Below are positions 11,645 to 37,097 of a stretch of 42,909 bases of DNA, in pieces. Source of the DNA: Gammaproteobacteria bacterium (GTDB lineage: Bacteria > Pseudomonadota > Gammaproteobacteria > GCA-001735895). The DNA lies in the NCBI GenBank assembly GCA_029864185.1, contig JAOTTY010000003.1:1-42909 (forward strand). Reading direction: 5' to 3'. Positions within the stretch are counted from its first letter, which is position 1; each line of letters starts with the position of its first letter. The notes below the pieces were generated by a model. That model did no database searches, was not told the origin of the DNA, and was given only the letters and a program-made list of their open reading frames with translations. The position numbers and the translations under genes were made by a program.

Positions 11645-12215
11645 CTGTCGCTGTTTTCCCGGGGTCGGCCGCGGCAACCGCCGTGGCGGATTGCGCGACG
11701 TCGTCGGCGTCATCTGCGGCGGCTGCGTCAGCGGCTTCATCCGCGCCATCGATGGCCTCGAGTTCGTCCGGCTGTTCGGCTACAGCCTCGCTTTCCGCGG
11801 CCAGTTTTTCGCGCAGCTTCTGCTCCTCCATTTCGATCCGGTGACGCATGTCGCTGGTGACGATGTCCCCCAGTTTCTCGAAGGACGTGTAATCGTCATC
11901 GTACTCGTCGAGCCCGTCGCGTATGTTGAAAACCGGCGCCCCAAAAAGTTTGCGCAACGCGAGATTGCGCAACTCGTCGCTGACGCCCGCCGACATGAAG
12001 CCGCTGAAATCCGAACTCTCGTCGAGCGATTCGACTGCGGGCATATCGGCGTCGGTCAGTACCGGCTGCGCTGCCGCCTCCACCTGTGGCGGAGCTTGAG
12101 CTGTGGCAGTTTCCGGCGGCGCGGCGGATTCCGGAGCCGGCTGCAACGCCTTGTCGGCCTCGTGCTTGCGGCGCGACCAGCGCGACAATACCGATTCATT
12201 GCTATCCCTGGTCAT
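11634..12215 (-). CDS. DUF3306 domain protein (FDH accessory)
   Basis: LSRWSRRK, SDFSGFM, LRNLALRKLF, DGLDEYDDDYT. Confidence 0.88.
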   Translation of the reverse strand: MTRDSNESVLSRWSRRKHEADKALQPAPESAAPPETATAQAPPQVEAAAQPVLTDADMPAVESLDESSDFSGFMSAGVSDELRNLALRKLFGAPVFNIRDGLDEYDDDYTSFEKLGDIVTSDMRHRIEMEEQKLREKLAAESEAVAEQPDELEAIDGADEAADAAAADDADDVAQSATAVAAADPGKTATDEQ

Positions 12216-12748
12216 GACTTTTCGTCGGCCGGATTCGTCTCCGGCCGCTCGCCTTCGCCCCAGTTCTTCAGCTTGCGCTTGGTTTTTTTGATCGCGATAT
12301 AATGCGTCAGCACATAGGCTTCCAACCATTTATAAAGCTCCGGAATGAGCGCTACCGCGTAAACCTGCTCGTCTCCCTCCTGATAGGCGTGAACCTCGTC
12401 GAAGCTCAGTGATACCAGGTAGGGAACCGGCATTTCGTCGCTGCTGTCCGGCTGGCTGGCGACGATGAAACAGCCGGGCTCGGGCGACATCAGGTTATGG
12501 TAATAGCTTTCGCATTGATCGACGTGCAGCCGCAGCGTCAACCCGGTGACCAGGAAATGCTCGATGTCGCCGTTCTGGTAAACCTGCCTGACCGACCTCT
12601 CTTCGCCCGCCGCGCGCACCACGACCCCGAGCGCCTGGTACCTGAAATTCGCCCAGGGGTGTGACGAAGGCTGCTTTTCCATCAACACCGCGAGCGTCAA
12701 TTCCTCGGGCAGGACCTGGTCGAAATCCTCGAGTTCCAGTTTTTCCAT
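12212..12748 (-). CDS. DUF3305 domain protein (FDH accessory)
   Basis: PW motif, LRLHVDQCESYYHNLMSPEP, basic C-terminus; ATGA overlap with DUF3306. Confidence 0.85.
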   Translation of the reverse strand: MEKLELEDFDQVLPEELTLAVLMEKQPSSHPWANFRYQALGVVVRAAGEERSVRQVYQNGDIEHFLVTGLTLRLHVDQCESYYHNLMSPEPGCFIVASQPDSSDEMPVPYLVSLSFDEVHAYQEGDEQVYAVALIPELYKWLEAYVLTHYIAIKKTKRKLKNWGEGERPETNPADEKS

Positions 12749-12965
12749 CGACTCCGGTCGGGGCTTTGAACATGGGAAGGGAGTTATACCATAATCCGCC
12801 CCTGCTCGCGCAACCACAGCTTTTCAGGGGTTTATCCGATGCTTCCCTTCAGGCTGGATATATCCCGAGCCCCTTCGAGAGAGTCAGGGCAGGTTTTGCG
12901 GTGATTGCGGTGCCGCGGTAGACAAATGTCGCGACAAACCTGGTCAGTCACAATTCTTGCGGCGG

Positions 12966-13790
12966 TTATTGCTGTTCGACGGTGAACGGACGCTCGTTTT
13001 TGAGCGCCGGGATGCGAGCGCGCACCTTTTCGACCTGGGCGAGGTCGATGTCGGCGTAGACGACGCCCGGCTCGGGGCCGCCGTCGACGAGGACTTCGCC
13101 CCAGGGATCGACGATTAGCGAATGGCCGTAAGAATAGCGCTTGTCGCAATGATGCCCACACTGGTTGGGCGCGATGACGAAGGCACCGGTTTCGATGGCG
13201 CGCGCCCGCACCAGCGTATGCCAGTGCGCCTTGCCGGTAGTCTGCGTAAAAGCGGCCGGAATCGTGATCATTTCCGCACCGGCATGGGCAAGCGCGCGGT
13301 ACAGTGCGCCGAAGCGCAGGTCGTAACAAATCGAAAGCCCCAGCCTGCCGAGCGGTGTCTCGACCAGCACCGCCCTGTCGCCATGCATGATCGCGTCCGA
13401 CTCGCGGTAGACTTCCCCGTTCTGCAGCTCGATATCGAACATGTGCAGCTTGTCATAACGCGCACGGATTTCGCCGGCGCTATCGAGCACAAAACAGCGG
13501 TTGAATATGCTTTCGCCATCGCGAATCAGCTGCGAACCGACCAGTATCATGACGCCGTGTTGGCGCGCCCTGTCGCGAAATGCAGCCAGGCCGATGTCGT
13601 CGGACTCGCGGTAGGTCGATGCGGGTATCTGCGCGTTCACCGGCTCGATCAGCCCCACGGTTTCGGGCAGCGCAACGAACTGCGCGCCGCCGGCGACCGC
13701 GTCATCGATGCGCGCGCACACCCACTCGATGTTGGTCTTTATATCGCGCGTCGCGGTATTTTGTACGCAGGCGACGCGAATTTCAGTCAT
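12966..13790 (-). CDS. Carbon-nitrogen hydrolase (Nit1/deaminated-glutathione amidase-like)
   Basis: Glu-Lys-Cys triad in ALPE, YDKLHMFD and SICYDLRF; TGKAHW, RARAIE and YGHSLIVDPWG. Confidence 0.92.
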   Translation of the reverse strand: MTEIRVACVQNTATRDIKTNIEWVCARIDDAVAGGAQFVALPETVGLIEPVNAQIPASTYRESDDIGLAAFRDRARQHGVMILVGSQLIRDGESIFNRCFVLDSAGEIRARYDKLHMFDIELQNGEVYRESDAIMHGDRAVLVETPLGRLGLSICYDLRFGALYRALAHAGAEMITIPAAFTQTTGKAHWHTLVRARAIETGAFVIAPNQCGHHCDKRYSYGHSLIVDPWGEVLVDGGPEPGVVYADIDLAQVEKVRARIPALKNERPFTVEQQ

Positions 13791-14904
13791 GCCGCAGCAC
13801 CTCCTCGGAATCATGATAGTCATACCCGAGATCGTGCGCCACTTCGCGCTGGGTAATCTTGCCCTTGTGTACATTGAGCCCGTCGCGCAGCCAGCGATTC
13901 TCCATCAAGGCCTGCCGGTATCCCTTGTCCGCAAGCTCGAGTACGTGCGGCAAGGTCACGTTGTTGAGGGCATAGGTCGACGTACGCGGCACGCCGCCCG
14001 GCATGTTGGCGACACAGTAATGCACCACGTTGTCGACGATATAGGTTGGCTCCGCGTGCGTCGTCGGCCTCGAGGTTTCGCAACAGCCACCCTGATCGAT
14101 GGCGACGTCGACGATTACCGCACCGGCTTTCATGCCCGTGACCATCTCGGCGGTTACCAGCTTCGGCGCTTCCGCACCCGGAATCAGCACGCCGCCGATA
14201 ACCAGGTCGGCGTCTTTGACATGACGCTCGATCGCGTCCTGCGTCGAAAACACGGTATTGGTGCTGCGCCCGAATTGCTTCCAGTGAGCCTCGATTGCCT
14301 CCGGATTGCGATCGATGACCCAGACGTCGGCGCCCATGCCGACAGCGATGTGCGTGGCGTGGGTGCCGACCACACCGGCGCCGAGGATCACGACCTTGGC
14401 CGGGTCGACCCCGGGCACGCCGCCGAGCAACATGCCGAGTCCGCCGTGCGGATGCTCGAGGCAATAGGCGCCGGCCTGGATCGCCATGCGTCCGGCAACC
14501 TTGGACATCGGCGCCAGCAGCGGCAATCCACCATGTGGCGAAGTCACGGTCTCATATGCGATGCAGATGGCGCCACTCGCGACCAGGTCTTTGGTCTGTT
14601 CCGGATCCGGCGCCAGGTGCAGGTAGGTAAACAGCACCTGACCTTCGCGCAGCATTGCGCGCTCCGACGCCTGCGGCTCCTTGACCTTGACCACCATTTC
14701 GGCGCGCGCAAAGATTTCCTTCGCCGAGTCGACGATCTCGGCACCGATCTGGGCGTATTCGTCGTCGCCGACGCCGATACCGCCACCGGCATCGGTTTCG
14801 ACCATGACCTGGTGCCCGTGCCTGATCGCCTCGCGCACGCTCGCCGGCGCCATGCCGACGCGATACTCATGATTCTTGATTTCCTTGGGAACGCCTATCA
14901 ACAT
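13783..14904 (-). CDS. ald: Alanine dehydrogenase
   Basis: [54 protein letters not shown]. Confidence 0.97.
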
Positions 14905-15255
14905 AATAACCACCGGGGTAGCAGGGTAAAGACCACAAAAGTAATTGAGCCCGGTGACGCCCGCTAGTGCCAGCAAAACTAATTTACTGTACCAGCCCGC
15001 TTCGGGCATTTTACCGGGCCGTGGGCTTTACAGACCAAGGTCGCGAGCGGGAAACTCGCTGGAGGTTGCCAGCCATCGGCAAAGCGATCGGACCCGGCTG
15101 CCCGGCGCGTCGACACCTGAGAGTCGATTCGATTTCAATCATGCCGGCGATTCGTCTCGCCAGCGTGCAGATCGACAGGAAATCGCCGCCGCGCCGACCC
15201 CGCGAGCCGTTTCAGCGGGGGAATCGCGGTGCCAGAGACCTTACAGATAATGCCG

Positions 15256-15284
15256 TTGGTAATTGGATTAATCGTTGCTAGAAT
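15256..15284 (+). promoter_or_regulatory. Candidate sigma70 promoter for moaA-fdhD
   Basis: TTGGTA-17 nt-TAGAAT with a TGn extended -10 element, ending 10 nt before the ATG at 15295. Confidence 0.4.
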
Positions 15285-15294
15285 AGCCCGTTCT

Positions 15295-16305
15295 ATGTCA
15301 GCACAAAACTCACAGCACCAGCTCATCGACCGTTTCGGCCGCAGTGTGAGCTACGTGCGCCTGTCGGTAACCGACCGCTGTGACCTGCGCTGCGTCTACT
15401 GCATGCCGGAGAAGATGAAATTCGTGCCGCGCACGCAACTGCTGACGCTCGAGGAAATGGAAAGCGTCGGGCGCGCCTTCGTCAAGCTCGGCGTCGACAA
15501 GATCCGCATCACCGGCGGAGAACCTCTGGTGCGGCAGAACATCCTGCAGCTGTTCCAGAACCTCGGCGCAATCGAAGGGCTGCGCGACCTGACGCTGACG
15601 ACCAATGCGACGCAGCTAACCAAATTCGCGCGGCCGCTGAAGGACGCGGGCGTTACGCGCATCAACGTCAGCCTCGATACCCTGCAGACAGATCGCTTTC
15701 GCGCCATGACCCGCGTCGGCGACCTGCAGAAAACCCTGGACGGCATCGACGCCGCCATTGCCTGTGATTTCAAGCAGATAAAAATTAACACCGTGGTGCT
15801 CAGAAACCATAACCACGACGAAATCCTCGACCTGGTCAATTTCTGTATCGATCGCGGCATCGATATCAGCTTTATCGAGGAAATGCCGCTGGGTCAGAAC
15901 GATCACCACGATCGCGCGGTAGCATATTACTCCAGCGACCAGATTCTCCAGGACCTGGAACAGCATTTCGAGCTGGTACCGAGTACGATGACCACCGCCG
16001 GTCCGACTCGCTACTACCAGCTTACCGACCACCAGAAAACCCGTGTCGGCTTCATCTCGCCGCACAGCCACAACTTCTGCGACAGTTGCAACCGGGTTCG
16101 CGTCACCGCCGAAGGACGCCTGCTGCTGTGCCTGGGACAGGAACACTCGATGGATCTGCGTCACGTTATCCGCGCCCATCCGGGCGCGCCCGAGGCGCTC
16201 GAGCAGGCCCTGGTCGACTCGATGCAGATCAAGCCCAAAGGGCATGACTTCAATCTCAATTCCCAGGAAATACTGCTGCGCCATATGAATATGACCGGAG
16301 GCTGA
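15295..16305 (+). CDS. moaA: GTP 3',8-cyclase (radical SAM)
   Basis: LIDRFGR, CDLRCVYC, TGGEPL, FCDSCNRVR...LCL, C-terminal MNMTGG. Confidence 0.97.
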   Translation: MSAQNSQHQLIDRFGRSVSYVRLSVTDRCDLRCVYCMPEKMKFVPRTQLLTLEEMESVGRAFVKLGVDKIRITGGEPLVRQNILQLFQNLGAIEGLRDLTLTTNATQLTKFARPLKDAGVTRINVSLDTLQTDRFRAMTRVGDLQKTLDGIDAAIACDFKQIKINTVVLRNHNHDEILDLVNFCIDRGIDISFIEEMPLGQNDHHDRAVAYYSSDQILQDLEQHFELVPSTMTTAGPTRYYQLTDHQKTRVGFISPHSHNFCDSCNRVRVTAEGRLLLCLGQEHSMDLRHVIRAHPGAPEALEQALVDSMQIKPKGHDFNLNSQEILLRHMNMTGG

Positions 16306-16306
16306 T

Positions 16307-17188
16307 ATGGCCTCGGTGCAAAAGCGGCGCCTTCCCGAACTGTCCAACGCCGGCCTCAAGGCGACCGCCAACGTGGTGGCATTCAACGAGTACAACGAAC
16401 CCGTCGACGGCGCCATCGCGGTCGAGCGAGCGTTGACGATTTACCTCGACAAGCGTGAAATCGTGACCCTGATGACGCTCGGCAACCATCCCGAGTTGCT
16501 GATCCTGGGCTGGTTGCGCAATCAGCGCCTGGTCGACGACATCGAGGCGATCAAGGCGATACAGGTCGACTGGGAAACGGAGTCGGTCGCGATCGTGACC
16601 CACGGGGGCGTTGCCAGTCTCGACAAGAAGCTCGACCGCAAAACCGTGACCACGGGTTGCGGACAGGGCACCGTTTTCGGCGACCTGATGGAAAACATCG
16701 ACGAAATATCGCTGCAACAGCCCGTCCTCAAGCAGTCGTCCATCTACGCGCTGCTGAACGCGCTGAGCGCTTTCAACGAGATCTATAAAAACGCCGGCGC
16801 GGTGCACGGCTGCGCGCTGTGCAGCGAGGAATTCGGCATCGAGCAGTTCATCGAGGACGTCGGCCGGCACAACGCGGTCGACGCGATCGCCGGCTACATG
16901 TGGCTTAACGATATCAGGGGCAACGACAAACTCTTCTACACCACCGGCCGGCTGACCTCGGAAATGGTCATCAAGGTAGCACTGATGCAGATCCCGGTAT
17001 TGCTGTCGCGTTCGGGCATTACCGCGATGGGACTCGAGATCGCGCAAAAGGTCGGCGTGACGCTGATCGCGCGCGCCAAGGGGAGACACTTCCTGGTCTA
17101 CCACGGTGGCGAACTGATCGAATACGACGAAATGCCGCCGCAGCGCCCGCGCCACCCCGGCAGGGATACGCGCAGCAGTCCCGACTAG
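16307..17188 (+). CDS. fdhD: Formate dehydrogenase accessory sulfurtransferase
   Basis: TTGCGQG, AGAVHGCAL, EDVGRHNAVD, TTGRLTSEMV. Confidence 0.95.
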   Translation: MASVQKRRLPELSNAGLKATANVVAFNEYNEPVDGAIAVERALTIYLDKREIVTLMTLGNHPELLILGWLRNQRLVDDIEAIKAIQVDWETESVAIVTHGGVASLDKKLDRKTVTTGCGQGTVFGDLMENIDEISLQQPVLKQSSIYALLNALSAFNEIYKNAGAVHGCALCSEEFGIEQFIEDVGRHNAVDAIAGYMWLNDIRGNDKLFYTTGRLTSEMVIKVALMQIPVLLSRSGITAMGLEIAQKVGVTLIARAKGRHFLVYHGGELIEYDEMPPQRPRHPGRDTRSSPD

Positions 17189-17257
17189 GGCGTTTCTCGG
17201 CGCGATACCGCTTGCCGCGCCAGCCTGCTAAGCTTGATCCATGCCAGGCTGCGCCCA

Positions 17258-17890
17258 ATGAAGATAAAACCTTTTAGATCCAATCACCTGCTGCACGCGC
17301 TGATACTGTGGTTGATCCTGGCCTGGGTTGCCACCGCGATCGATCCGCTGTACCCGCGCGACTGGCTACTCGAAAACCTGCTGGTTTTTATCTGCAGCGC
17401 GCTGCTGGTATTCACCTACCACAACTTCCAGTTCTCCAATTTATCCTACGCCCTGTTTGTCCTGTTTCTGAGCCTCCACCTCGCCGGGGCGCATTATACC
17501 TACGCCGAGACGCCGTTCGGATTCTGGCTACAGGACCAGTTCGGATTCGAACGCAATCATTACGACCGCATCGTTCATTTTTGCTTCGGGCTACTGATCG
17601 CATATCCGATGCGGGAAATTCTGTTACGCAAATCCGGGCTGAGCAAAGCCTGGTCGTATTTCATTACCGTCAACTGCGTCCTCGCTTTCAGCGCGATCTA
17701 CGAGATTATCGAGGCCATCACCGCGGCTATCGTCAGCCCGGAGCTCGGCGCCGCCTACCTGGGCACGCAAGGGGACGAATGGGATGCGCAGAAAGACGCC
17801 CTGCTCGCCTTCACCGGCGCGATTCTTGCGATGCTGGTGACCTGGGCGCATACCCGCAACCGGGCGGGGACGAACGAACCGGGGATATAA
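17258..17890 (+). CDS. DUF2238 (YjdF-like) inner membrane protein
   Basis: DWLLEN, GAHYTYAETP, RNHYDRIVH, YEIIE, YLGTQGDEWDAQKD. Confidence 0.9.
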   Translation: MKIKPFRSNHLLHALILWLILAWVATAIDPLYPRDWLLENLLVFICSALLVFTYHNFQFSNLSYALFVLFLSLHLAGAHYTYAETPFGFWLQDQFGFERNHYDRIVHFCFGLLIAYPMREILLRKSGLSKAWSYFITVNCVLAFSAIYEIIEAITAAIVSPELGAAYLGTQGDEWDAQKDALLAFTGAILAMLVTWAHTRNRAGTNEPGI

Positions 17891-17919
17891 ACCGGATCGA
17901 ATACCCACGATCGGGAGCG

Positions 17920-18441
17920 TTATGTTTCGCGCAATCTCGGCATCAGTTCCACCAGGTTACAGGGGCGGGTGCGGAAATCGAGCTGGGTAGCGATCAGTTG
18001 CGTCCAGGCGTCCTTGCAGGCGCCGGATGAACCGGGCAGGCAGAAAATGTAGGTGCCATTGGCAACGCCCGCGACCGCGCGCGACTGCAGCGTCGAGGTA
18101 CCGATGGTCTGGTAGGAAAGACTGCGGAATGTTTCGCCGAATCCGTCGATCACCTTGTCGAGCAGCGGGATGACCGCTTCCGGCGTGCCGTCCCGGCCGG
18201 TAACGCCGGTGCCTCCCGTCGTCAGCACCACCTGTAGATCCTCATCGACGATCCAGCGCGACAGGACTTCGCGGATTCGATACTTGTCGTCCGGAACGAT
18301 GGCCCTGTGCGCGAGCCGGTGCCCGGCCTCGGTCAGAAACCGGGCCAACAGGGGCCCGGACTTGTCGCTGGCTTCGTCGCGTGAATCGGATACGGTCAGC
18401 ACCGCGATATTGAGCGGGACAAAATCTCGATCCTGGTCCAT
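17920..18441 (-). CDS. moaB: Molybdenum cofactor biosynthesis protein B (MogA/MoaB family)
   Basis: IAVLTVSD, DKSG, TTGGTGVTGRDGTPEA, LQSRA, LPGS, TRPCNLVELMPRL. Confidence 0.95.
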   Translation of the reverse strand: MDQDRDFVPLNIAVLTVSDSRDEASDKSGPLLARFLTEAGHRLAHRAIVPDDKYRIREVLSRWIVDEDLQVVLTTGGTGVTGRDGTPEAVIPLLDKVIDGFGETFRSLSYQTIGTSTLQSRAVAGVANGTYIFCLPGSSGACKDAWTQLIATQLDFRTRPCNLVELMPRLRET

Positions 18442-18446
18442 CGAGG

Positions 18447-18647
18447 TCAGTACTTGATTTCGTCTTCGATCGACAGGGCGTCGTCGATCAGGTCGCATTC
18501 CAGCGTGATCTTGACCCGCACCGGGTTGCCGTCGAGACGGCCCTCGTCATTAGCCTGATCGATGGCGCGTTCGATTTCGCGTTGCGAGGTAATGCCGACT
18601 TTTTTGAGGAACTTGCGAATCGACATGTTAAGGGCATCTTCGTCCAT
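18447..18647 (-). CDS. Small conserved protein (DUF6494-like)
   Basis: MDEDALNMSIRKFLKKVGITSQREIE pattern; AGGAG RBS; 5 bp upstream of moaB. Confidence 0.75.
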   Translation of the reverse strand: MDEDALNMSIRKFLKKVGITSQREIERAIDQANDEGRLDGNPVRVKITLECDLIDDALSIEDEIKY

Positions 18648-18866
18648 CGGTATTACTCCTGCAGTTATATCCGGGGCAGGCATTTTACCCGTTTTATCTA
18701 ACGGCCCCAATAATATTCGACTAGGCCGGCGCAGGATTGATAAACTGCGATCCCCATTTGACCCGACTGAAAAGGAAAAGATATTGCGCGATCACCAGAT
18801 TCGGCCCGAGACGCCGGCAGCCGCCGCAGCCGTGAACCCCGACCTGGTGCGCCAGATCCAGAATCG

Positions 18867-19460
18867 ATGACTATCACGGCAGAAGACATTACCGCGGTCA
18901 TTCTCGCCGGCGGCCAGGGCCGTCGTATGGGCGGCCAGGACAAGGGTTTGCTCGACTTCAACGGCAGGCCACTGGTCGCGCTGCTGATCGATGAGCTCGA
19001 ACGCCAGGCGCTCGCCATCGTCATCAACGCCAACCGCAACCTGCAGCGTTACCGGAGCTTTGGCTATCCCGTCGTCAACGACCAGCTCGAAGATTACCAG
19101 GGGCCGCTGGCCGGTTTCGCGAGCGCGATGCATGCGGTAAAAACCGACTTCATCCTGACCCTGCCCTGCGACGGGCCGACGCTGGCAGACGATTATGCCG
19201 CGCGATTCATGGCCAGGTTCGAGCAAACCGGTGCCCCGGTGATTGTCGCCTTCGACGGCGAGCGCCTGCAACCGGTGCACGCGCTGATCCGGACCAGCCT
19301 GCGGCCGAGCCTGGACCGGTTCCTGGCGACGGGCGATCGCAAGATCGACCGCTGGTACGCGTCGCACGATTATGCGCAGGCCGACTTTTCCGACTGTGCC
19401 GACATGTTTCGCAACATCAACACGCCCTCCGATCGGCAAGACCTGCAGGCCAGCCAGTGA
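18867..19460 (+). CDS. mobA: Molybdenum cofactor guanylyltransferase
   Basis: ILAGGQGRRMGGQDKG, INANRN, GPLAG, PCD, FRNINTP. Confidence 0.95.
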   Translation: MTITAEDITAVILAGGQGRRMGGQDKGLLDFNGRPLVALLIDELERQALAIVINANRNLQRYRSFGYPVVNDQLEDYQGPLAGFASAMHAVKTDFILTLPCDGPTLADDYAARFMARFEQTGAPVIVAFDGERLQPVHALIRTSLRPSLDRFLATGDRKIDRWYASHDYAQADFSDCADMFRNINTPSDRQDLQASQ

Positions 19461-19981
19461 ACGCACCGATTCCGATACTGGGTTTCAGCGCGTGGAGCGG
19501 CACCGGCAAGACCACCCTGTTGCGGCAGTTGATCCCGGCGCTCAAGGCGCGCGGCTTGCGCGTTTCGGTGATCAAGCACGCGCACCATCATTTCGATCTG
19601 GACTTTCCTGGCAAGGACAGCTACGAGCTGCGCAAGGCCGGGGCCGAACAGACCGTCATCTGCACCACCACGCGCATGGCGACGATTACCGAGTTCGATA
19701 CACCCGGCGACGAGCCGAGTTTGCAACAAATCATCGCGTCGCTCGACACCCAACGCGTCGACATGATCCTGGTGGAAGGCTACAAGGATATTCGCTTCCC
19801 CAAGGTCGAGCTGCACCGCAAGGCGCTCGGTAAACCCTATATGTACCCGAAAGACGACGCCATAATCGCCATCGCCTGCGATGCCGCGCTACCCGACGAC
19901 TCCCGCATCCCGGTGCTCGATATCAACGACATCGAGGCCGTTGCGAATTTTATCTTTGACGAGTTCTACGCCAAAAGCTGA
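19457..19981 (+). CDS. mobB: Molybdopterin-guanine dinucleotide biosynthesis protein B
   Basis: P-loop AWSGTGKTT, IKHAHH, GKDSY, LVEGYK, PKVEL. Confidence 0.95.
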   Translation: MNAPIPILGFSAWSGTGKTTLLRQLIPALKARGLRVSVIKHAHHHFDLDFPGKDSYELRKAGAEQTVICTTTRMATITEFDTPGDEPSLQQIIASLDTQRVDMILVEGYKDIRFPKVELHRKALGKPYMYPKDDAIIAIACDAALPDDSRIPVLDINDIEAVANFIFDEFYAKS

Positions 19982-20074
19982 TCCTCGGGTTGCAGCAGGA
20001 GACGAGGTTTACGAGGCACGGTCGCGAGTCGCCCGTTAAGCCTCACTTCTGACGCATCGAGGCAATCCTCCGGT

Positions 20075-20332
20075 TTATTCTTCAAACGGCAGTGCCGGCT
20101 TGCTTGTCGCGTGTTCGCCCAGGAATTCGACAAGATGACGCACGCCGGGCGTAATGCCGCACTCGGCCAAGTAATCCGGGATAAATTAGCGGGCCAGCCC
20201 GATTTCCTCGTCGAGCCGTAGCGACGCCTCGCGCGCCACCGCGGTGGCCAGTTCGCGGCAACGGTCGTCGGGATCGAAAAGGTAACCCTCCTCGTCGCAA
20301 AGCGCCGCCGTAATTTTTGCAGTCGTATGATT
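20075..20332 (-). pseudogene. Degenerate DsrC/TusE-family (sulfur relay-like) gene remnant
   Basis: Manual translation: NHTTAKITAALCDEEGYLFDPDDRCRELATAVAREASLRLDEEIGLAR*FIPDYLAECGITPGVRHLVEFLGEH... This matches the DxEGYLxDPxxW...A...L...F.R.Y....P..R pattern. There is an internal TAA at 20186-20188, no ATG, and no C-terminal Cys arm. Confidence 0.62.
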
Positions 20333-21553
20333 TCAGCCGGGACGGCCGTCAACCCGCGCGCGGCACAGAATCGGCGCGTAGACGACGAGAAATATAAGAA
20401 ACGCGAGGCACCACAGCAGCGCGCCGAGAACCGACCAGGTCAACAATGCCGATGGCAGCAGCATCGGACCGAACACGCGCAGCAGCGCGGCTCCGGTAAC
20501 CAGTAAATAAGCGGCTATCATCCCGCGAGGTGCTACCAGCGCTCGCCCGGTGTGTCCGAGCGCGGCGCGGCTCATGACGCCCATGATCATCGTCGAGAAG
20601 GCGCCGACGGTCAGCGCGTGCAGCCAGCTGGCGCCAGGCATCGTCACGACCGTCAAGCCGAGCGCCTTGATGGCGAGACTGACCGGCAGCCACGCGTAGC
20701 CAGCATGCAGCACCCAGACCAGTGGATTCCGCAGTGCCCTGTGACCCTGCCAGCGGCCCAGCTGGGTAGACATCAGCACCGCCGCGATGGCCGCGATGGC
20801 CGCGGCAAACAGGCTTTCGGGCAGCAGCAGATCGACGACGAGTACACCGCCGACAACGGGCAATACCATCTTGTCCAGCAACTGATAGCGCCTGATCCGA
20901 ATATCGAGTCCACCCTCCTTGAGGCCGGCCGACGTGAATGCGGGGACGATGCGCCCACCGAGCATCGCCAGCATGCAAAGCATGGTGTTCATCCCCAGCA
21001 ACAAGGGACCGGTGACGGCAGCGCCACTTAGATGAAAATGCAGGTTGGACGCAAACAACAGCGCAAGCAGGCCGATGAATACCAGGTTACGGCGGTTACC
21101 GGAACGCAGCATTGCCGGCAGGATCGTCAGCCCGAGGGCTGGTACGAATGCAAGGTCAATTATCGCTATCCACAGGGCGGGCAGACCCAGCGTTACCGTC
21201 GTCGCCACGCGGCCCGCGACCCACAACAACAGCAGTCCGACCAGGGGCGCACCGGCGTACCCGCGACGGCCGGTCCAGCTCGGAACCGCGGTCAGCAGGA
21301 AACCGGCGACCGCAGCGGCGATGAAACCGTAGAGCATTTCGTGGGCATGCCAGACGTAGGCGGGTAATGCCGTCTGCGGCAACTCGAGCCCGTGCAGCAG
21401 GCCGATCCAAAACGGTATCGCGACCGCAGCATAAATGCCGGTAACCAGGAAAAAAGGCCGAAAACCGTATGCGAAAATGACGGGGTAGCCCAGGGCCTGT
21501 GGACTCGGATCAGGCTCGATGGAAGCAGGCTGCGGTGGTGGCGATGATTTCAT
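20333..21553 (-). CDS. nnrS: NnrS-family heme-copper membrane protein (NO response)
   Basis: GFRPFFL, WHAHEMLYGF, GFLLTAVPSWTG, GGRIVPAFT, LHAGY, LHALTVG, SRAALGHTGR, RVDGRPG. Confidence 0.95.
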   Translation of the reverse strand: MKSSPPPQPASIEPDPSPQALGYPVIFAYGFRPFFLVTGIYAAVAIPFWIGLLHGLELPQTALPAYVWHAHEMLYGFIAAAVAGFLLTAVPSWTGRRGYAGAPLVGLLLLWVAGRVATTVTLGLPALWIAIIDLAFVPALGLTILPAMLRSGNRRNLVFIGLLALLFASNLHFHLSGAAVTGPLLLGMNTMLCMLAMLGGRIVPAFTSAGLKEGGLDIRIRRYQLLDKMVLPVVGGVLVVDLLLPESLFAAAIAAIAAVLMSTQLGRWQGHRALRNPLVWVLHAGYAWLPVSLAIKALGLTVVTMPGASWLHALTVGAFSTMIMGVMSRAALGHTGRALVAPRGMIAAYLLVTGAALLRVFGPMLLPSALLTWSVLGALLWCLAFLIFLVVYAPILCRARVDGRPG

Positions 21554-21599
21554 CTCCCGGAGGAACGTCGGAATTTCACTGGACTAGGATAGTAAAACC

Positions 21600-21641
21600 A
21601 GCATAACCAGGCCCGCGGGTTGCGCAAATGACTAATGTCAA
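21600..21641 (-). promoter_or_regulatory. FNR/DNR/NnrR-type class II promoter of nnrS
   Basis: Minus strand TTGAC-ATTA-GTCAT (21641-21628) and -10 TATGCT (21605-21600). This places the box centre at about -41.5. Confidence 0.65.
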
Positions 21642-21683
21642 ACGGCTAAATATGGCTGCAGTTGACTTAACTCGGCCTTTATT

Positions 21684-21704
21684 CGGGGACAGTTTACTTA
21701 ATTC
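21684..21704. repeat. Single REP-like GGGGACAGTTTACTTAATTC copy
   Basis: CGGGGACAGTTTACTTAATTC, identical to the copy at 2622-2642. Confidence 0.85.
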
Positions 21705-21803
21705 GAACCAGACCCTGCCCGAGTAAGCGATATCCCCCCATTTTTGAGCCGGCTGCCGATGCGCTTCTTTATCTCTGCTGATATTTCCCGAGAACAGCAG
21801 CGG

Positions 21804-22217
21804 TTAGTAGAAAAATATCGCGCAGCTTCCGTAAACGAGGTTGGTTGTTACCGAGGCGAAAATACAGATCAGAAACAACGCGGCGACCAATTTGTCCATC
21901 CTCGTTTCGTCGAAATCGCCGCCGAGCAGATGGTCAGCCAGGTATTTTACATAACCGCCGCTGCGGCTATCCAGCCCCAGTTCCCTGCGAACGCCCCACT
22001 GGATATCGGTAACCAGGCAGTAGCCCCAGGCATCGCCTTTTCCGAGCAGTGGACCCAGCCCGTACCACGAGATCAGGGTCAACGCCAAGCCCACCAGGTT
22101 CAGCATCCTTGTCTCGCAAAACATCCATCCCGCCAGACTAAACAGGATAAGAAACTGGTGAATTCCATGCAGCGAAAGATTGAGCGCCTGCAGAACAAAC
22201 CTGCGCATAACTGTCAT
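21804..22217 (-). CDS. DUF2784-like small membrane protein
   Basis: Hydrophobic helices with H..F...GW, GYCLVTDIQW and GYVKY pattern. Start uncertain (22217 or 22244). Confidence 0.65.
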   Translation of the reverse strand: MTVMRRFVLQALNLSLHGIHQFLILFSLAGWMFCETRMLNLVGLALTLISWYGLGPLLGKGDAWGYCLVTDIQWGVRRELGLDSRSGGYVKYLADHLLGGDFDETRMDKLVAALFLICIFASVTTNLVYGSCAIFFY

Positions 22218-22257
22218 GTCTGAATGATTGCCGAACTTGATCATGACACGACTTTTT

Positions 22258-23529
22258 TCAAGCCTCCTCTGCCAACGCACTCGCCCGAATTTCGTCAGCA
22301 TGCTCGATTACGCGCCTGAAAGCGAGGACGTACTGGTCCAGCAATGCCCGATCGGCGTTCGGGAACGATGGGAGCTTGATTAATGTTTCGTTTCCAAGCC
22401 GGGTTTCGGCCAGGTCTTCGGGTCGGTATTGGGCCGGAACTACCCCGGCCGGCAATCTCGCCAGCGTCATCGCATGCCCCTCGGTAAAAAAGGGTTGCTG
22501 GTGAACCAGCGGGTAACGGGGCGACCATACTAGACATCCCTCGGCCTTCAGAGCCCTGACCAGAAGCGGCAGGGGCAGGGATAGCCGGTCGGGTCTGTAG
22601 CGGATCAGGTATTCAAAATATACCCGTTCGATGTGGGCGGGTGGCAGGAAGGTGTCAAAGCCCAGATCCTCCAGCCGTGCGGAGAGATACTTCAGATTTT
22701 CGTTACGCTTTCGATTGTGCTCGGGTAGCCGGCGTAGTTGCTCCCGGCCAAGCGCTGCGGACATTGGTGCAATACGCGTTTTGATGCCGAAGCTAGTGGC
22801 GGCGAATCGTCGCATCGGGCTCTCCAGTTCGATGATCCGGGTAATATCGCCCAGGCACACGGCGCGCTCGTAATAATCCCGGTCGCGACACAGCAATACC
22901 CCCCCTTCACCGGCCGGCGCCAACTTATCCCCCTGCAGACTGAAGACGGAGATGTCGCCCAGCGAGCCGCAGGGTTGGCCTCGCCATGAAGCGCCATGCG
23001 CGTGAGAGGCGTCCTCGATGATCTTCAGGCCGTACGTTTCGGCAATCTTTTTAATTTCCGTCATCTTGCTGGGTAATCCCCAGAGGTGAACAACGACGAT
23101 GGCGCGCGTGCGGTCGGTGATCTTGCGTTCCAGGTCTTCCGGATCGAGGCCCATTCGCTCCGGTTCGCTGTTGCAAAACACCGGCACCAGACCGTTCCAT
23201 AGCATCGGTGAAACCGAGGCCCAGAAGGTCGCGGACGGAACCAGTATTTCACCGCCGGGTTCGAGATCCAGCGCAAAAAACGCCGCGAGCAAGGCCGCGG
23301 TGCCGTTACAATGGGCGAGTGCATAGGGCATGCCGGTGAATTCCCTGTAATCGGCTTCAAGGTCACGAATTACCGGATGGGTCGACACATTACCATCGCG
23401 AATTACCTGCAGCACGGCCTGCTCGTCGTCGATCGTTAAGTTCGGCCATGAATTTGCAGCTTCCTGATCCAGGGTTACCACCGGATCACCGCCCAGAATA
23501 GCAGGTAGTTCTGTAGTTTCTTTCTGCAT
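22258..23529 (-). CDS. DegT/DnrJ/EryC1/StrS-family PLP aminotransferase
   Basis: NGTAAL, VPSATF, VHLWG, IEDASHAHGA, VFSLQGDK (PLP Lys) and GEGG. Confidence 0.93.
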   Translation of the reverse strand: MQKETTELPAILGGDPVVTLDQEAANSWPNLTIDDEQAVLQVIRDGNVSTHPVIRDLEADYREFTGMPYALAHCNGTAALLAAFFALDLEPGGEILVPSATFWASVSPMLWNGLVPVFCNSEPERMGLDPEDLERKITDRTRAIVVVHLWGLPSKMTEIKKIAETYGLKIIEDASHAHGASWRGQPCGSLGDISVFSLQGDKLAPAGEGGVLLCRDRDYYERAVCLGDITRIIELESPMRRFAATSFGIKTRIAPMSAALGREQLRRLPEHNRKRNENLKYLSARLEDLGFDTFLPPAHIERVYFEYLIRYRPDRLSLPLPLLVRALKAEGCLVWSPRYPLVHQQPFFTEGHAMTLARLPAGVVPAQYRPEDLAETRLGNETLIKLPSFPNADRALLDQYVLAFRRVIEHADEIRASALAEEA

Positions 23530-23552
23530 AGCGCCTTTACCTTTAATCTCGA

Positions 23553-25049
23553 TTAAACATTTTCGAGCACCCGGTCAAATCGATCTGCAACGCTTGCCCG
23601 ATAGGCCGCCAGATGCTGCTCTGCCTTTACCCGATTACCGCGTGCAAGCGTCAATGACATCTCGCGCAACAGCTGCAGGTTTTCATCCTCAGATCCGAGC
23701 CCTTCACGCGGCACCCATTGAGAGATGTTGGTGCGCCGCCTCAGATAATCTTCCAGCGTGTTGCAGTATTCGTGTTCCATACACCAGTCGATTGTCGGAA
23801 ATTTTTCAGCCAGCCCCGGGAAAGCGAAAGTTCTCGCGGAGGCCTGATCCGCCGGAATTTCCTCGGCACTAATTTTTTGCCGCTCGGGAAGAATTGCATC
23901 GAGCCTGCGTGCGACAGACGCCGCCAGGCTTCTACAACCGGTTATTTTGCTGCCGTATACGGATACCCAGGACTTGCCTTTATCTACCGTAATACGACTA
24001 CGGCGCGAGAGTTCCAGCGGATATTCATCCTTGTCATAACTCGCTTTGACAACCAGCGGACGAATGCCACAGCGAAGCGATACGATATCTTTTGTGGTCG
24101 CGGCTCGCCTGTAGCAGCGGCCATAGTGATGCAATAAAAAATGAATGTCTTCGGGTAAGGCGGAAAATCCTTGCTCGATATCCCGGATTGCGGTTTCCGT
24201 GGGCCCCCACAGGCCGATCGGTCCCCAGGGAATGCTGGTAATGACATCATTATGCTCTCCCATATCGAATATCATCGGGGCCAGCTGCTCGCGGTGACGC
24301 CTCATGCCGAGAATGACACCCTTGCTGAATACATGCTTGTACGGGGAAGGAATACCGAAACTGGCATTGATTCGATCGGTCCACACCCCGGCACAATTGA
24401 TTACCGCGCGCGTGCGAAAACTGATTTCCTGATTTCCGATTCGATCCCTTGCCGATAAATGCCAGGACCCATCGCCGTCGCTGAATGCGCCTTCTTCCAG
24501 TTCACAGTAATTGAGGGCAACTCCGCCAGAATTCGTGTTGCGCGTAATCCAGTGCAATACGAAGCGCGCGTCGGACTGCATGATTCGGGCTTCTTCAAAC
24601 AGCAGGGAAACGTTATCCCGGGCCAGGAGGCCTTTTTCGGGGAATTGTTTCTCGATACGGGGGCGGCCTCTTTTGAATTGACTGATCAGCCAGTACAGGT
24701 AAAGAGCCAGTGTCACGGGCGCCTTGCTGAGCAAGCCATGCTTCGCGGGCAGAAATCTGAACCAACATGGTGACACCCACTCTGCCATTTCGTGGATCAT
24801 TTTGTCACGGGACGCGGAAAAGCTGTAAACCGCAGGAAAATCCAGGCTTCCAAGGTACAGTAACCCACCCCACACCATCATCGCCGAAGCCTGACTGGTA
24901 CCGCTGCCGAAGTCAGACTTCTCGATCAGGATAACGCGACGGCCTTCGCGACAAAGCTGGTTATAAAGGCAGGCGCCGTTGATTCCGCCGCCAATGATGG
25001 CTACATCAAAAATCCCTGATGTGGCCGCGTCTTTGTTTTCTTCCCGCAT
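23553..25049 (-). CDS. FAD-dependent oxidoreductase, divergent glycerol-3-phosphate dehydrogenase (GlpD/DAO) family
   Basis: IIGGGING, EKSDFGSGTSQAS..VWGGLLYL, SDAR, VINCAGVWTD, SKG, GIRPL, LEDYLRRRT. Start at MREENK. Confidence 0.85.
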   Translation of the reverse strand: MREENKDAATSGIFDVAIIGGGINGACLYNQLCREGRRVILIEKSDFGSGTSQASAMMVWGGLLYLGSLDFPAVYSFSASRDKMIHEMAEWVSPCWFRFLPAKHGLLSKAPVTLALYLYWLISQFKRGRPRIEKQFPEKGLLARDNVSLLFEEARIMQSDARFVLHWITRNTNSGGVALNYCELEEGAFSDGDGSWHLSARDRIGNQEISFRTRAVINCAGVWTDRINASFGIPSPYKHVFSKGVILGMRRHREQLAPMIFDMGEHNDVITSIPWGPIGLWGPTETAIRDIEQGFSALPEDIHFLLHHYGRCYRRAATTKDIVSLRCGIRPLVVKASYDKDEYPLELSRRSRITVDKGKSWVSVYGSKITGCRSLAASVARRLDAILPERQKISAEEIPADQASARTFAFPGLAEKFPTIDWCMEHEYCNTLEDYLRRRTNISQWVPREGLGSEDENLQLLREMSLTLARGNRVKAEQHLAAYRASVADRFDRVLENV

Positions 25050-25517
25050 TGCCAATCGAGCCCACTGCCAAATCATCCCTCTCGGATGAAAGTCATCTGC
25101 AATATTTGCTGACGTCCTGTCATCACCCGTATCTTTTACAATTTGGTCGGTTTTATTTACCGAAACTCTGCCGCCTTGATCCGCTGTATCTCCAGGTTCG
25201 GAGACTCACACAGGTCTCGGTCAAAGTCCCTGTCTGATAAGTTTCGACCACCTCTTAAGTCAATGACAATCCCAAAACCCAATAAAAACATTACATCAGG
25301 TTTTACCAGGGATAAACTGACATACATCAAATTCGAACTCTCTGGGCCAGATGAACCTGCGGCCTTGAAATGCGTTCGAATTTCCAGCGAAATATCCGAT
25401 CGCGGCGGAAGTATGATAGCTCGCGCCAGCGCCACTGCTGTTCTGGCAGGTTTGCCACGCCTGGTTTGCAAGCGTCGGCAAATCCTTGCCGTTTCTTACA
25501 ATGGGAGGCTTTCCAGG

Positions 25518-26486
25518 TTAATCGAGCGGATGGAAACAGGCGACTTCGACCGAGCCCCTGGAAACCAGCGGTGGCTCGGATTTACTGCAATCCGCCTGCG
25601 CGTTCGCACAGCGCGGGGCAAACGCGCAGCCCGGCGGCGGGGACAGCGGCGATGGAGGTTCGCCGACCAGACGGATGCGCTGCCGGCGCCTCCTCGGATC
25701 GGCGACCGGCGTAGCGGAAAACAGCGCCTTGGTATAGTGATGCCTCGGATTCTCGAAAATTTTGTCGGCCGGCCCGACTTCGATCGGCTTGCCGAAATAC
25801 ATCACCATAATGTCGTCGGCGATACGCCGCACCACCGATAAATCGTGCGATATAAATATGTACGCGAGGCCGAACTCATCCTGCAGATCGCTCAACAAAT
25901 TCAAAATCTGCGCGCGGATCGACAAATCGAGCGCCGACACCGGCTCGTCGAGGATCAGTATCTTCGGATTCAGCATCAACGCGCGCGCGATCGCGATGCG
26001 CTGCCGCTGACCGCCGGAAAACATGTGTGGGTAACGGTCCGCGTGCTCGGGCCGTAGACCGACCTTGGCGATCATTTCTTCCGCCGCGGCGCGGCGTTGC
26101 GTGATATCGAGATCGGTATTCAGTTTGAGCGGCTCTTCCAGCATCGTCGCCACGGTCTTGCGCGGGTTCAGCGATCCGTAGGGATTCTGAAACACGATCT
26201 GTACGTGACGGCGCAGCTCGTCGGGCGGCTTGCCGCCGACCAGCGCGATTTCGTTGCCCTCGATTTCGAGGGTGCCGCTGGTAGGCGACTCAATCATCGT
26301 CAACACCCGCGCCAGCGTCGATTTTCCGCAGCCGCTCTCGCCCACGATGGCCAGGGTCTCTCCCGGAAAAACATCGAAAGAGGCGCCGTTCAACGCCTTG
26401 ACCGTGGCGTTCGGCTTGAACGCCCCGCGGTTCACCGCGTAGTAACGGGTCAGGTTACGCGCCCGCAGGATCGCCTGTTTACTCAT
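25518..26486 (-). CDS. dppF: Dipeptide ABC transporter ATP-binding subunit
   Basis: GESGCGKST, VFQNPYGSLNP, YPHMFSGGQRQR, DEPVSALD, C-terminal Cys-containing oligopeptide domain. Confidence 0.93.
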   Translation of the reverse strand: MSKQAILRARNLTRYYAVNRGAFKPNATVKALNGASFDVFPGETLAIVGESGCGKSTLARVLTMIESPTSGTLEIEGNEIALVGGKPPDELRRHVQIVFQNPYGSLNPRKTVATMLEEPLKLNTDLDITQRRAAAEEMIAKVGLRPEHADRYPHMFSGGQRQRIAIARALMLNPKILILDEPVSALDLSIRAQILNLLSDLQDEFGLAYIFISHDLSVVRRIADDIMVMYFGKPIEVGPADKIFENPRHHYTKALFSATPVADPRRRRQRIRLVGEPPSPLSPPPGCAFAPRCANAQADCSKSEPPLVSRGSVEVACFHPLD

Positions 26487-35671: not shown

Positions 35672-36415
35672 TCAGGTCTTCGCACAGGCGGGGCAGTCGG
35701 GATTTTTCGGTAGCGTCACCGCCTGCCATTCCATAGCGTAGGCGTCGAACAGCAACAGGCGGTTCACCATCGCCTCGCCCTGTCCCGCGAGAATCAACAG
35801 GGTTTGCAGCGCCTGCATCGTGCCGATGACTCCAACCACCGGACCGAGCACGCCTTCGAGTTCGCAGGACTCCTCGGCGCCGAAGGCGTGCGTATACAGG
35901 CACTGGTAACAGGCGCTGTTTGCGGCCGGCTGGTAATTCATGATCTGCCCCTCGAGCCGGATTGCGGCGCCAGTCACCAGCGGGGTCGCGGTGTCGACGC
36001 AGGCGCGGTTGACGTCGAAACGGGTCGGGTAGTTATCGCAACAGTCGAGCACGATGTCGACAGAGCTTACCACCTGCTTCAATTCGTCGCCTTCGAGCTG
36101 ATAGGAAATAAGGTCCACCTCGCATCTCGGGTTCAGGTCCTTGAGGGTTTGCCTGCCCGATTCGACCTTGTGCTCGCCGACCGCGGCCTCGCGGTGAATG
36201 ATCTGCCGCTGCAGGTTGGATGTCTCGACGATGTCGTAATCGCTTAGCACCAGTCTACCGATGCCCGCCGCGGCCAGATACATGGCCGCCGGCGAGCCGA
36301 GGCCGCCGACGCCGACGATCAACGCGCTCGCGTCAAGAATGGCCTGCTGCCCTTTTTCGCCGATCTGCGGCAAGCGGATATGACGCGCAAAGCGCTCTTT
36401 CTGCTCCGGATTCAT
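35672..36415 (-). CDS. moeB: Molybdopterin-synthase adenylyltransferase (MoeB/ThiF E1-like)
   Basis: RFARHI.LP.IG..GQ, VGVGGLG, SNLQRQ, DCCDNY, CYQC...SC..EGVLGP...CPAC. Confidence 0.92.
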   Translation of the reverse strand: MNPEQKERFARHIRLPQIGEKGQQAILDASALIVGVGGLGSPAAMYLAAAGIGRLVLSDYDIVETSNLQRQIIHREAAVGEHKVESGRQTLKDLNPRCEVDLISYQLEGDELKQVVSSVDIVLDCCDNYPTRFDVNRACVDTATPLVTGAAIRLEGQIMNYQPAANSACYQCLYTHAFGAEESCELEGVLGPVVGVIGTMQALQTLLILAGQGEAMVNRLLLFDAYAMEWQAVTLPKNPDCPACAKT

Positions 36416-36741
36416 CCGCCGCCCTTGTGAAAATACTGGTGGAAGCGATGGAAAAAGCGTTCGCGCTCGTCCGGTTCCGCGCGGTCGAAATGGAAGCTCA
36501 CCTTGAGCACCGGCAACGCGAACAGCCCGATCTTGCGCGGTGGCTGTTCGGCCACTTCGATCTCGAGTTCGAAGGCCGAGTTGACGAGCGATACCAGCCA
36601 GCGGTGGCGGCCGATTGCGGCCGCATTGAAGTCGCTGCGTGCGCCGGTGAACGGACCGAGCAGCACCTTGCCGAATTCGTCGGCGCCGTAGCCCATCTCG
36701 TATTCTACGCGGCTCGATCGTGGATCCGGATTAGCGTTCAT
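36412..36741 (-). CDS. Conserved-looking hypothetical protein with C-terminal GGG (AorE-like)
   Basis: EYEMGY...RKIGLFALPVLKVSF.F...FFHRFHQYFHKGGG*. The stop overlaps the moeB start (ATGA). Confidence 0.75.
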   Translation of the reverse strand: MNANPDPRSSRVEYEMGYGADEFGKVLLGPFTGARSDFNAAAIGRHRWLVSLVNSAFELEIEVAEQPPRKIGLFALPVLKVSFHFDRAEPDERERFFHRFHQYFHKGGG

Positions 36742-37091: not shown

Positions 37092-37097
37092 TGGTGC

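Follow-up and report, generated by a model that had tools for sequence, protein, structure and literature searches.

Gene content of the locus

The stretch analyzed here, 42,909 nt of contig JAOTTY010000003.1 (hereafter, the window), comes from an uncultured gammaproteobacterium represented by a metagenome-assembled genome (MAG; assembly GCA_029864185.1, referred to below as G000) of 4.35 Mb in 439 contigs, and is found in sediment metagenomes. Between dppF (with dppDCBA beyond it) and nnrS, the window carries a cassette of three genes that encode a flavin adenine dinucleotide (FAD)-dependent dehydrogenase of the GlpD family, a pyridoxal phosphate (PLP)-dependent enzyme of the DegT family, and a small membrane protein with the DUF2784 domain:

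23553..25076, minus strand: GlpD-family FAD-dependent dehydrogenase gene (the longest open reading frame [ORF] has 507 aa; the database form starts at 25049 and has 498 aa)
22258..23529, minus strand: DegT/DnrJ/EryC1/StrS-family PLP aminotransferase gene (423 aa; Pfam ID PF01041)
21804..22244, minus strand: DUF2784 small membrane protein gene (146 aa, counted from M20; Pfam ID PF10861)

The flavoprotein and DegT genes are separated by a gap of 23 nt (23530-23552). The longest DUF2784 ORF runs to position 22301, overlapping the DegT gene by 44 nt; in the ESM Atlas record, the protein starts at M20 of this ORF, 13 nt past the DegT stop codon. The original prediction, made from the sequence alone, was of three co-oriented, closely spaced genes, the first two 23 bp apart, lodged between dppF and nnrS, and both the ORFs and the family assignments bear this out. 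The flanking DppF matches the NCBIfam subfamily NF008453 (509.6 bits, with a cutoff of 408), and the flanking NnrS matches its Pfam family with 345 bits. The same prediction was right that no glpK, glpF, nucleotide-sugar, or glycosyltransferase genes are nearby: none are found among the scanned ORFs of at least 150 aa across the 42.9-kb window, which likewise contain no genes for a nucleotidyltransferase, NDP-sugar dehydratase, or flippase.

Linkage of the three genes in environmental genomes

The trio is a self-contained, widely spread cassette. A profile of the flavoprotein family was used to fetch 80 metagenome loci, of which 70 have at least 400 nt of downstream DNA. In 69 of these 70, a DegT gene (threshold, at least 50% identity) lies directly downstream of the flavoprotein gene, and its product is 59 to 74% identical to the DegT protein of the window. 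Beyond DegT, 49 loci have at least 450 nt of DNA, and DUF2784 comes after DegT in 39 of these (adjacent to it in 38 and separated by one intervening gene in locus L034); the profile used for this count was built from 18 of the same loci. A tblastn search with the DUF2784 protein of the window alone finds matches in 42 of the 80 loci. Thus, the co-occurrence that the original prediction had proposed as a check is seen for all three families, in the same order, on dozens of unrelated contigs.

Clustering of all ORFs in the 80 loci reveals no fourth family that extends beyond a handful of closely related contigs. One ORF cluster present in 12 loci and another present in 7 resembled mis-called antisense frames of the DegT and flavoprotein genes and were set aside on their appearance. 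The 35 long loci contain no further conserved neighbor, and glycosyltransferase, NDP-sugar, glpK, and glpF genes are not conserved in them, so the concern that the trio might be a fragment of a larger polysaccharide or antibiotic cluster is not substantiated. The flanking genes vary between loci: in a Pfam scan, 81 flanking proteins, chosen from the 145 family-unique ORFs of at least 100 aa located beside the cassette in the long loci, proved to be products of unrelated housekeeping genes, with no glycosyltransferase, nucleotidyltransferase, NDP-sugar dehydratase, or flippase among them.

The flavoprotein and DegT domains are also found in a single polypeptide. Protein P0273 (987 aa) has an N-terminal DegT domain followed by a cassette-type flavoprotein at residues 484 to 980, which is 45% identical to the window protein and carries the signature residues of the family described below. 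As its two domains are arranged in the opposite order from the separate genes, P0273 is a genuine fusion and not a read-through artifact, and it supports the coupling of the two proteins.

A few individual loci have neighbors of some interest. An inositol-monophosphatase-family gene (positions 6198-6974 of L020) lies 21 nt upstream of the cassette in the same orientation, a class I fructose-bisphosphate aldolase gene is found upstream of the cassette in L080 (833-1864), and a PlsC-type acyltransferase is encoded two genes downstream of it in L038 (11506-12837). None of these neighbors recurs across lineages.

GlpD-like flavoprotein

Residues 24 to 341 of this protein match the DAO domain (Pfam ID PF01266) with a score of 85 bits. 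The N-terminal GxGxxG motif is intact, and the FAD-binding motif IIGGGINGA aligns with residues 7 to 16 of Escherichia coli GlpD. The match to the C-terminal domain DAO_C (Pfam ID PF16901) is weak (28.8 bits, with a gathering score of 31.4), and PF16901 is included in the precomputed Pfam listing of the database; a short C-terminal stretch, including the RRT motif, aligns with residues 451 to 479 of E. coli GlpD. With that enzyme (PDB entry 2QCU), the cassette flavoprotein shares the FAD-binding DAO fold, approximately 30% sequence identity over residues 15 to 385, and possibly a homologous C-terminal domain. It is probably located at the membrane surface and reduces quinone. Unlike GlpD, it belongs to a separate clade, scores below the family cutoffs, has several pocket residues replaced, and is encoded next to DegT and outside any glpK or glpF context.

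Specifically, its scores against two NCBIfam GlpD models are far below the cutoffs (150.4 bits against 360 and 136.9 bits against 352). The same genome encodes another GlpD, linked to glpK on contig C276 (L002 1057-2658, with L002 3-923 downstream), which scores 274.8 and 241.3 bits on these models, below the cutoffs yet about twice as high as the window protein. In HMMER searches, full-length matches belong to the family of the cassette flavoprotein, whereas ordinary GlpD-type proteins match only its first ~390 residues, with 130 to 190 bits. A tree of 75 sequences, built with a quick IQ-TREE method and without the fusion protein P0274, places the cassette family behind a single split with a Shimodaira-Hasegawa-like approximate likelihood ratio test (SH-aLRT) support of 100 and a stem of 1.71 changes per site. 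The family has more than 1,000 members of about 500 aa that are 45 to 60% identical to the window protein; the few with a named source come from MAGs of Thermodesulfobacteriota, Nitrospinota, Verrucomicrobia, and Gammaproteobacteria. The original prediction had called this flavoprotein divergent; it indeed forms a clade of its own, and its altered pocket fits a substrate other than glycerol-3-phosphate (G3P).

The changes in the pocket were identified by comparing 60 family members with 43 other GlpD-type proteins, E. coli K-12 GlpD and 42 more. The comparison set includes two types, the E. coli type with an HGGLRY motif and another with WGGIKY; the latter includes the glpK-linked GlpD of this genome, which, as it adjoins glpK, is likely its working GlpD. 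In E. coli numbering, the signature of the cassette family is W50, L54, E143, Y/F/I233, D254, P270, and E272. Position 54 is Leu in 60/60 family members and Arg or Lys in 43/43 other GlpD-type proteins; position 233 is Tyr, Phe, or Ile in 59/60 and His in 42/43; position 254 is Asp in 60/60 and Arg in 43/43; position 270 is Pro in 60/60 and Thr in 41/43; and position 272 is Glu in 59/60 and Asp in 43/43. In the window protein, these five positions read L, I, D, P, and E. We take positions 54, 233, and 254 (as well as 270 and 272) to line the substrate- or phosphate-binding pocket of E. coli GlpD. On balance, two positive charges and one histidine have been given up, and one acidic side chain has been acquired along with two that are hydrophobic or aromatic.

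Three basic residues, Arg317, Arg332, and Lys354 (R330, R349, and K368 in the 498-aa form of the window protein), are invariant in all sequences compared. Arg317 is presumably the general base of GlpD; a recent study mentions an arginine proposed for this role (10.1101/2024.02.29.582781). For the Mycoplasma enzyme GlpO, the histidine at position 50 is the proposed base (PMC10726252). Both the cassette family and the glpK-linked type have Trp at position 50, so it does not discriminate between them; because the glpK-linked GlpD also has Trp, the GlpO base histidine is not universal among likely G3P dehydrogenases. In 34 of the 43 sampled GlpD-type proteins, as in the glpK-linked GlpD of the genus, Trp and Lys occupy the positions of His50 and Arg54 of E. 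coli.

Given the replacement of Arg or Lys by Leu at position 54, of His by Tyr, Phe, or Ile at position 233, and of Arg by Asp at position 254, the cassette flavoprotein is probably not a G3P dehydrogenase. Part of the anion-binding set is kept, and we read this as pointing to a substrate that remains anionic and resembles glycerol phosphate but does not carry the phosphate dianion of G3P.

DegT-family PLP enzyme

The DegT protein of the window matches PF01041 with 249.1 bits (gathering score, 19.8; E value, 1e-73) over positions 6 to 324 of the 360-position profile. In dehydratase members of the DegT family, the Schiff-base lysine is replaced by histidine. Here, the lysine is present within a strongly conserved block, in the motif SLQGDK, which aligns with SLQATK of PDB entry 8gyh, SFNGNK of 7b0m, and SMQHSK of 5w70; no mention of the structure 8GYH turned up in the literature search. 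With this lysine in the DegT protein and the FAD motif, R317, R332, and K354 in the flavoprotein, both enzymes look active. DegT is the most conserved member of the cassette, with 117 of 423 columns invariant in 35 sequences from different lineages; its counterparts in other phyla share 59 to 74% identity with it.

This protein passes none of the NCBIfam equivalog models: the best match, to PseC, is 173.5 bits with a cutoff of 423.5, and each of the 12 listed families falls well short of its own cutoff. Thus, none of the models for named nucleotide-sugar aminotransferases (PseC, LegC-like, DesI, ArnB, WecE, and RfbH) is satisfied. Among solved structures, which include NtdA, the NDP-sugar aminotransferases and the non-nucleotide inosose aminotransferases lie at about the same distance from it. 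At an E value of up to 1e-100, there are at least 1,443 homologs; the source-named ones come from Alpha- and Gammaproteobacteria, Thermodesulfobacteriota, Nitrospinota, and Nitrospirae. Close homologs are present on contigs of 3.8 to 5.4 Mb.

DUF2784 protein

The third protein matches PF10861 with 40.3 bits (cutoff, 29.7; E value, 3.6e-10), and its nearest ESM Atlas clusters are likewise DUF2784, with a score of 0.96. The AlphaFold2 model (mean predicted local distance difference test [pLDDT] score, 88) is all-helical and consists of three long hydrophobic helices and a conserved, interfacial loop with two short helices. The invariant or nearly invariant residues are H26, H29, W40, L55, S59, W60, L63, G68, G74, Y75, C76, D80, and W83. 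It is tempting to speculate that H26, H29, C76, and D80, which lie near the membrane interface, form a His-His-Cys-Asp site for a metal, a quinone, or a head group. A fold search with this model against 48,161 PDB chains returns only generic helical matches, with a best Z score of 5.8, and mentions of DUF2784 in the literature search are confined to the pncA region of Mycobacterium tuberculosis.

G3P dehydrogenases have varied small partners, encoded downstream, that serve as membrane anchors (PMC11962113). GlpC, the SdhCD-like subunits, and the CoxG-like Saci_2031, for which an anchor role has been proposed or shown there, resemble the cassette arrangement in that a small protein is encoded downstream (in their case directly downstream) of a GlpD- or GlpA-type flavoprotein. 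However, DUF2784 is itself integral to the membrane, with three helices; no similarity to these partners is detected, and its gene comes after DegT rather than directly after the flavoprotein gene.

Predicted function of the cassette

Taken together, these features suggest a two-step pathway from an alcohol to an amine. The original prediction had put forward such a pathway; neither of the two conditions that it named as refuting (no co-occurrence elsewhere, or location inside a larger known cluster) applies in the loci examined, and the idea is partly supported. The flavoprotein, at the cytoplasmic face of the membrane, would oxidize the secondary alcohol of an anionic substrate that is similar to G3P but distinct from it and would pass the electrons to quinone. 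Candidate substrates include a lipid head group or glycerol phosphodiester, dihydroxypropanesulfonate or a similar C3 sulfonate, and another phosphorylated polyol or cyclitol. The DegT-family enzyme would transaminate the ketone made by the flavoprotein to yield an amine, and DUF2784 would act as the membrane partner, whether by anchoring the pair, by binding quinone, a metal, or lipid as a subunit, or by being a small membrane enzyme itself. We infer the order of the reactions, the coupling to quinone, the class of the substrate, and the role of DUF2784, and we regard this oxidation-amination scheme as about equally apt to prove right or wrong. The use of a GlpD-type, quinone-linked enzyme in place of an NAD-dependent one would make the first step irreversible and put it at the membrane. 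Because no further conserved gene is needed, the substrate is expected to be a common cell constituent and the product an end product; on these grounds, a lipid head group and an osmolyte are retained as the boldest versions of the scheme.

Such two-step amination is already known in kind; what would be new is the type of the oxidizing enzyme, the membrane partner, and the product. Pairs of a dehydrogenase and a DegT-family aminotransferase include NtdC/NtdA in kanosamine synthesis and GnnA/GnnB in the synthesis of lipid A with GlcN3N. As proposed for the cassette, these pairs convert a secondary alcohol to a ketone, which is then transaminated by the DegT-family member. Their dehydrogenases are soluble, NAD-dependent enzymes of the Gfo/Idh/MocA type that act on sugars or nucleotide sugars, whereas the cassette combines a GlpD-type flavoprotein as the oxidant with a small membrane protein.

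A different kind of likeness exists to Campylobacter jejuni Cj1437, which we take to be a DegT-family enzyme. Cj1437 converts dihydroxyacetone phosphate (DHAP) to (S)-serinol phosphate by transamination (PMC11800397). The ketone that this PLP enzyme aminates is at C2 of a phosphorylated C3 compound, the same compound that the GlpD reaction yields. The likeness is one of reaction; unlike the cassette enzyme, Cj1437 is encoded in a capsule locus, its partners are an amidoligase and a phosphatase, and it has no dedicated flavoprotein. A second parallel is provided by CuyC, a DegT-family (PF01041) racemase of cysteinolate from sulfate- and sulfite-reducing bacteria (PMC12814064). CuyC is paired with a dehydrogenase, as the DegT protein is in the cassette, and its substrate is a small C3 amino-alcohol carrying an anionic group. 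In contrast to the cassette enzyme, it belongs to a catabolic cluster whose other members are CuyA, CuyB, and the NAD-dependent HpsN; the cassette is linked to none of these.

Several observations weigh against the oxidation-amination scheme. The DegT family also includes dehydratases and at least one racemase (PMC12814064); for the window protein, "aminotransferase" is a designation by family default. An order in which the PLP enzyme acts before the flavoprotein, as in catabolism, is also conceivable. DUF2784 is absent in 10 of the 49 testable loci and is therefore not obligatory. In one locus, L088 (150-4975), a short-chain dehydrogenase gene is found downstream of the flavoprotein gene in place of DegT. 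A second fusion protein, P0274 (913 aa), is more distant and has only a partial signature. The loci are not all independent, as L029/L030/L033, L038/L039, L063/L065, and L079/L080 are near-identical sets. Finally, the functional meaning of the changed residues depends in part on the roles presumed for these positions in E. coli GlpD.

The catabolic order forms the basis of the best-surviving alternative, which we consider unlikely but worth retaining. The PLP enzyme, as a transaminase or a CuyC-like racemase, would act first on an imported amino-polyol or aminosulfonate, and the flavoprotein would then oxidize the alcohol of its product, feeding electrons into the respiratory chain. FAD- and quinone-linked dehydrogenases are typical of catabolism, many of the source-named cassette holders are Thermodesulfobacteriota or sediment MAGs, and in sulfate reducers, cysteinolate is degraded by CuyC and a dehydrogenase (PMC12814064). 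However, the dehydrogenase of that pathway is the NAD-dependent HpsN and not a GlpD-type enzyme, the cassette DegT matches no NCBIfam equivalog, and the genes usual in catabolic operons (for a transporter, a regulator, a lyase, or downstream catabolic steps) are not conserved beside the cassette in the 35 long loci.

It is improbable that the flavoprotein is an ordinary second G3P dehydrogenase serving G3P respiration, with DegT either unrelated to it or converting the resulting DHAP to serinol phosphate in the manner of Cj1437. The overall architecture, with the DAO domain and a putative C-terminal domain whose RRT motif aligns with that of E. coli GlpD, would allow it, as would the retention of R317, R332, and K354 and the known amination of DHAP (PMC11800397). 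However, the family lacks His233 and the basic side chains of positions 54 and 254, all kept in both GlpD types, the NCBIfam scores are less than half of the cutoffs, the genome already has the glpK-linked GlpD, and DHAP is a central metabolite that needs no dedicated supplier.

Nor is it at all likely that the trio is a stray piece of a nucleotide-sugar pathway (for O-antigen, capsule, or antibiotic), in which DegT would aminate an NDP-keto-sugar and the flavoprotein would be an unrelated neighbor or an unusual sugar oxidase: the best NCBIfam match and several PDB matches of DegT are to NDP-sugar aminotransferases such as PseC, LegC-like proteins, DesI, ArnB, and perosamine synthase, and JGI automatic names of its relatives read "perosamine synthetase," but all NCBIfam scores are far under the curated cutoffs, the non-nucleotide inosose aminotransferases score as high, no glycosyltransferase, nucleotidyltransferase, dehydratase, or flippase gene is found among the scanned ORFs of the window or conserved in the related loci, and the linkage in 69 of 70 loci and the fusion identify the flavoprotein as a true partner of DegT.

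Within the oxidation-amination scheme, the boldest version, which we view as decidedly doubtful, is the editing of membrane lipid head groups. The free glycerol in the head group of a glycerophospholipid such as phosphatidylglycerol would be oxidized and then aminated by DegT, changing an anionic lipid to a zwitterionic 2-amino-2-deoxyglycerol ("serinol") lipid, with DUF2784 presenting the lipid or anchoring the enzymes. The pocket of the flavoprotein has lost two presumed phosphate-binding arginines and gained hydrophobic residues and an aspartate. In a sibling version, the same chemistry may convert dihydroxypropanesulfonate to cysteinolate, whose biosynthesis is stated to be unknown (PMC12814064). 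Upstream of the cassette flavoprotein gene, locus L088 encodes a 569-aa lipid kinase of the DAGK_cat/YegS type, a possible hint at a lipid substrate that comes from this single locus.

The literature search found the trio described nowhere, and among the matches listed, DegT and the FAD-dependent G3P dehydrogenase are not treated together. The relatives carry generic or automatic names in their sources, such as "FAD-dependent oxidoreductase," "glycerol-3-phosphate dehydrogenase," and "perosamine synthetase." If the proposed scheme is correct, this common environmental trio would represent an unrecognized alcohol-to-amine route driven by the respiratory chain instead of NAD. Its product, whether an amino-polyol, an osmolyte of the aminosulfonate class, or a lipid with an aminated head group, would be a new metabolite or membrane modification of sediment and soil bacteria. 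It would also provide a function for DUF2784 and for a large clade of GlpD-like proteins that JGI names now misannotate as G3P dehydrogenases. With three genes only, the cassette is directly testable by heterologous expression.

Phyletic distribution and origin

Among relatives of the host, the cassette is rare. The cassette-type flavoprotein is found in 2 of 25 genomes of the genus, G000 itself and G001, where it is 89% identical. A cassette-type DegT (E value of up to 1e-100) is found in 0/399 other genomes of the class, which represent 320 genera, and in 0/400 other genomes of the phylum; the plasmid collection contains no match at an E value of up to 1e-60. In G001, the flavoprotein gene follows dppF at a contig end, and cassette-type DegT and DUF2784 are not recovered; as the completeness of this assembly is 81% and the two relevant contigs end where the cassette would continue, their absence carries no weight.

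Because of its rarity in relatives and lower GC content, the cassette appears to have been acquired horizontally by the G000/G001 lineage. The original prediction described it as an insert, for which these two features speak; the synteny check produced no empty dppF-nnrS site. In 10 other genomes of the genus, the 1.5 kb around the nnrS orthologs (54 to 68% identity) contain neither dppF nor any gene of the cassette; since dppF-nnrS synteny is not conserved in the more distant members of the genus, this speaks neither for nor against an insertion. Direct or inverted repeats flanking the putative insertion amount to short, chance-like pairs.

Base composition and edges of the cassette

Two noncoding features border the cassette:

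21659..21707, no strand: dispersed short repeat copy resembling repetitive extragenic palindromic (REP) elements, at the downstream cassette edge, identified by its genome matches
25077..25517, no strand: AT-rich noncoding stretch of 441 nt on the upstream side of the cassette

The GC fractions of the flavoprotein, DegT, and DUF2784 genes are 0.526, 0.583, and 0.537, respectively, compared with a mean of 0.596 +/- 0.022 for the 32 other ORFs of the window; those of the intergenic regions are 0.508 (21554-21803) and 0.485 (25077-25517). The AT-richness of the cassette is real yet modest and uneven. The original prediction that its DNA is AT-richer than the flanks thus stands for the cassette as a whole, but DegT is close to the window mean.

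The predicted REP-like copy at one edge and the ~450 bp of AT-rich noncoding DNA at the other are both present. The repeat at approximately 21659-21707 has 62 matches in the 4.35-Mb assembly, often in close inverted pairs, and four copies are clustered at positions 2575-2715 of the window. The 441-nt upstream stretch, in contrast, occurs once in the genome. It is ~80 to 85% identical to its counterpart in the sister genome G001, as judged by eye from an alignment of these two sequences, and in most other cassette loci, the upstream gaps are short. This stretch probably holds a promoter and a long leader that are lineage specific. An Rfam scan of positions 21300-25700 gives a single chance-level match (E value, 0.59) and none in the upstream stretch, and a scan for promoters and terminators returns the same counts as shuffled sequence.

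Small contigs from four RNA libraries map to the cassette, with exact matches in three of the libraries. The exact matches on the upstream side cover positions 25024-25174 and 25099-25341, and in one library, a relative at 90 to 95% identity covers parts of all three genes. These contigs give a weak hint of transcription and no proof of it.

Other genes of the window

Genes for molybdenum and tungsten enzymes dominate the window (positions 3515-20000 and 35672-42265), a theme that is broken by the dpp operon and the cassette. One group is a formate dehydrogenase-like molybdoenzyme set. The window encodes a molybdopterin oxidoreductase of 980 aa along with its Fe-S and cytochrome b561 subunits, a TorD-like chaperone, and FdhD. 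Cofactor genes are represented by moaA, mobA, mobB, moeA, and the genes for a MoCF_biosynth protein and a ThiF/MoeB-like protein. The window also encodes an aldehyde:ferredoxin oxidoreductase with a ferredoxin and a pyridine nucleotide-disulfide oxidoreductase.

Three ORFs have no Pfam match at the thresholds used: 136-978 (plus strand, 280 aa), 13708-14967 (plus strand, 419 aa), and 19966-20352 (minus strand, 128 aa). The last of these lies between mobB and nnrS; at the same place, G001 has a counterpart with 56% identity to it.

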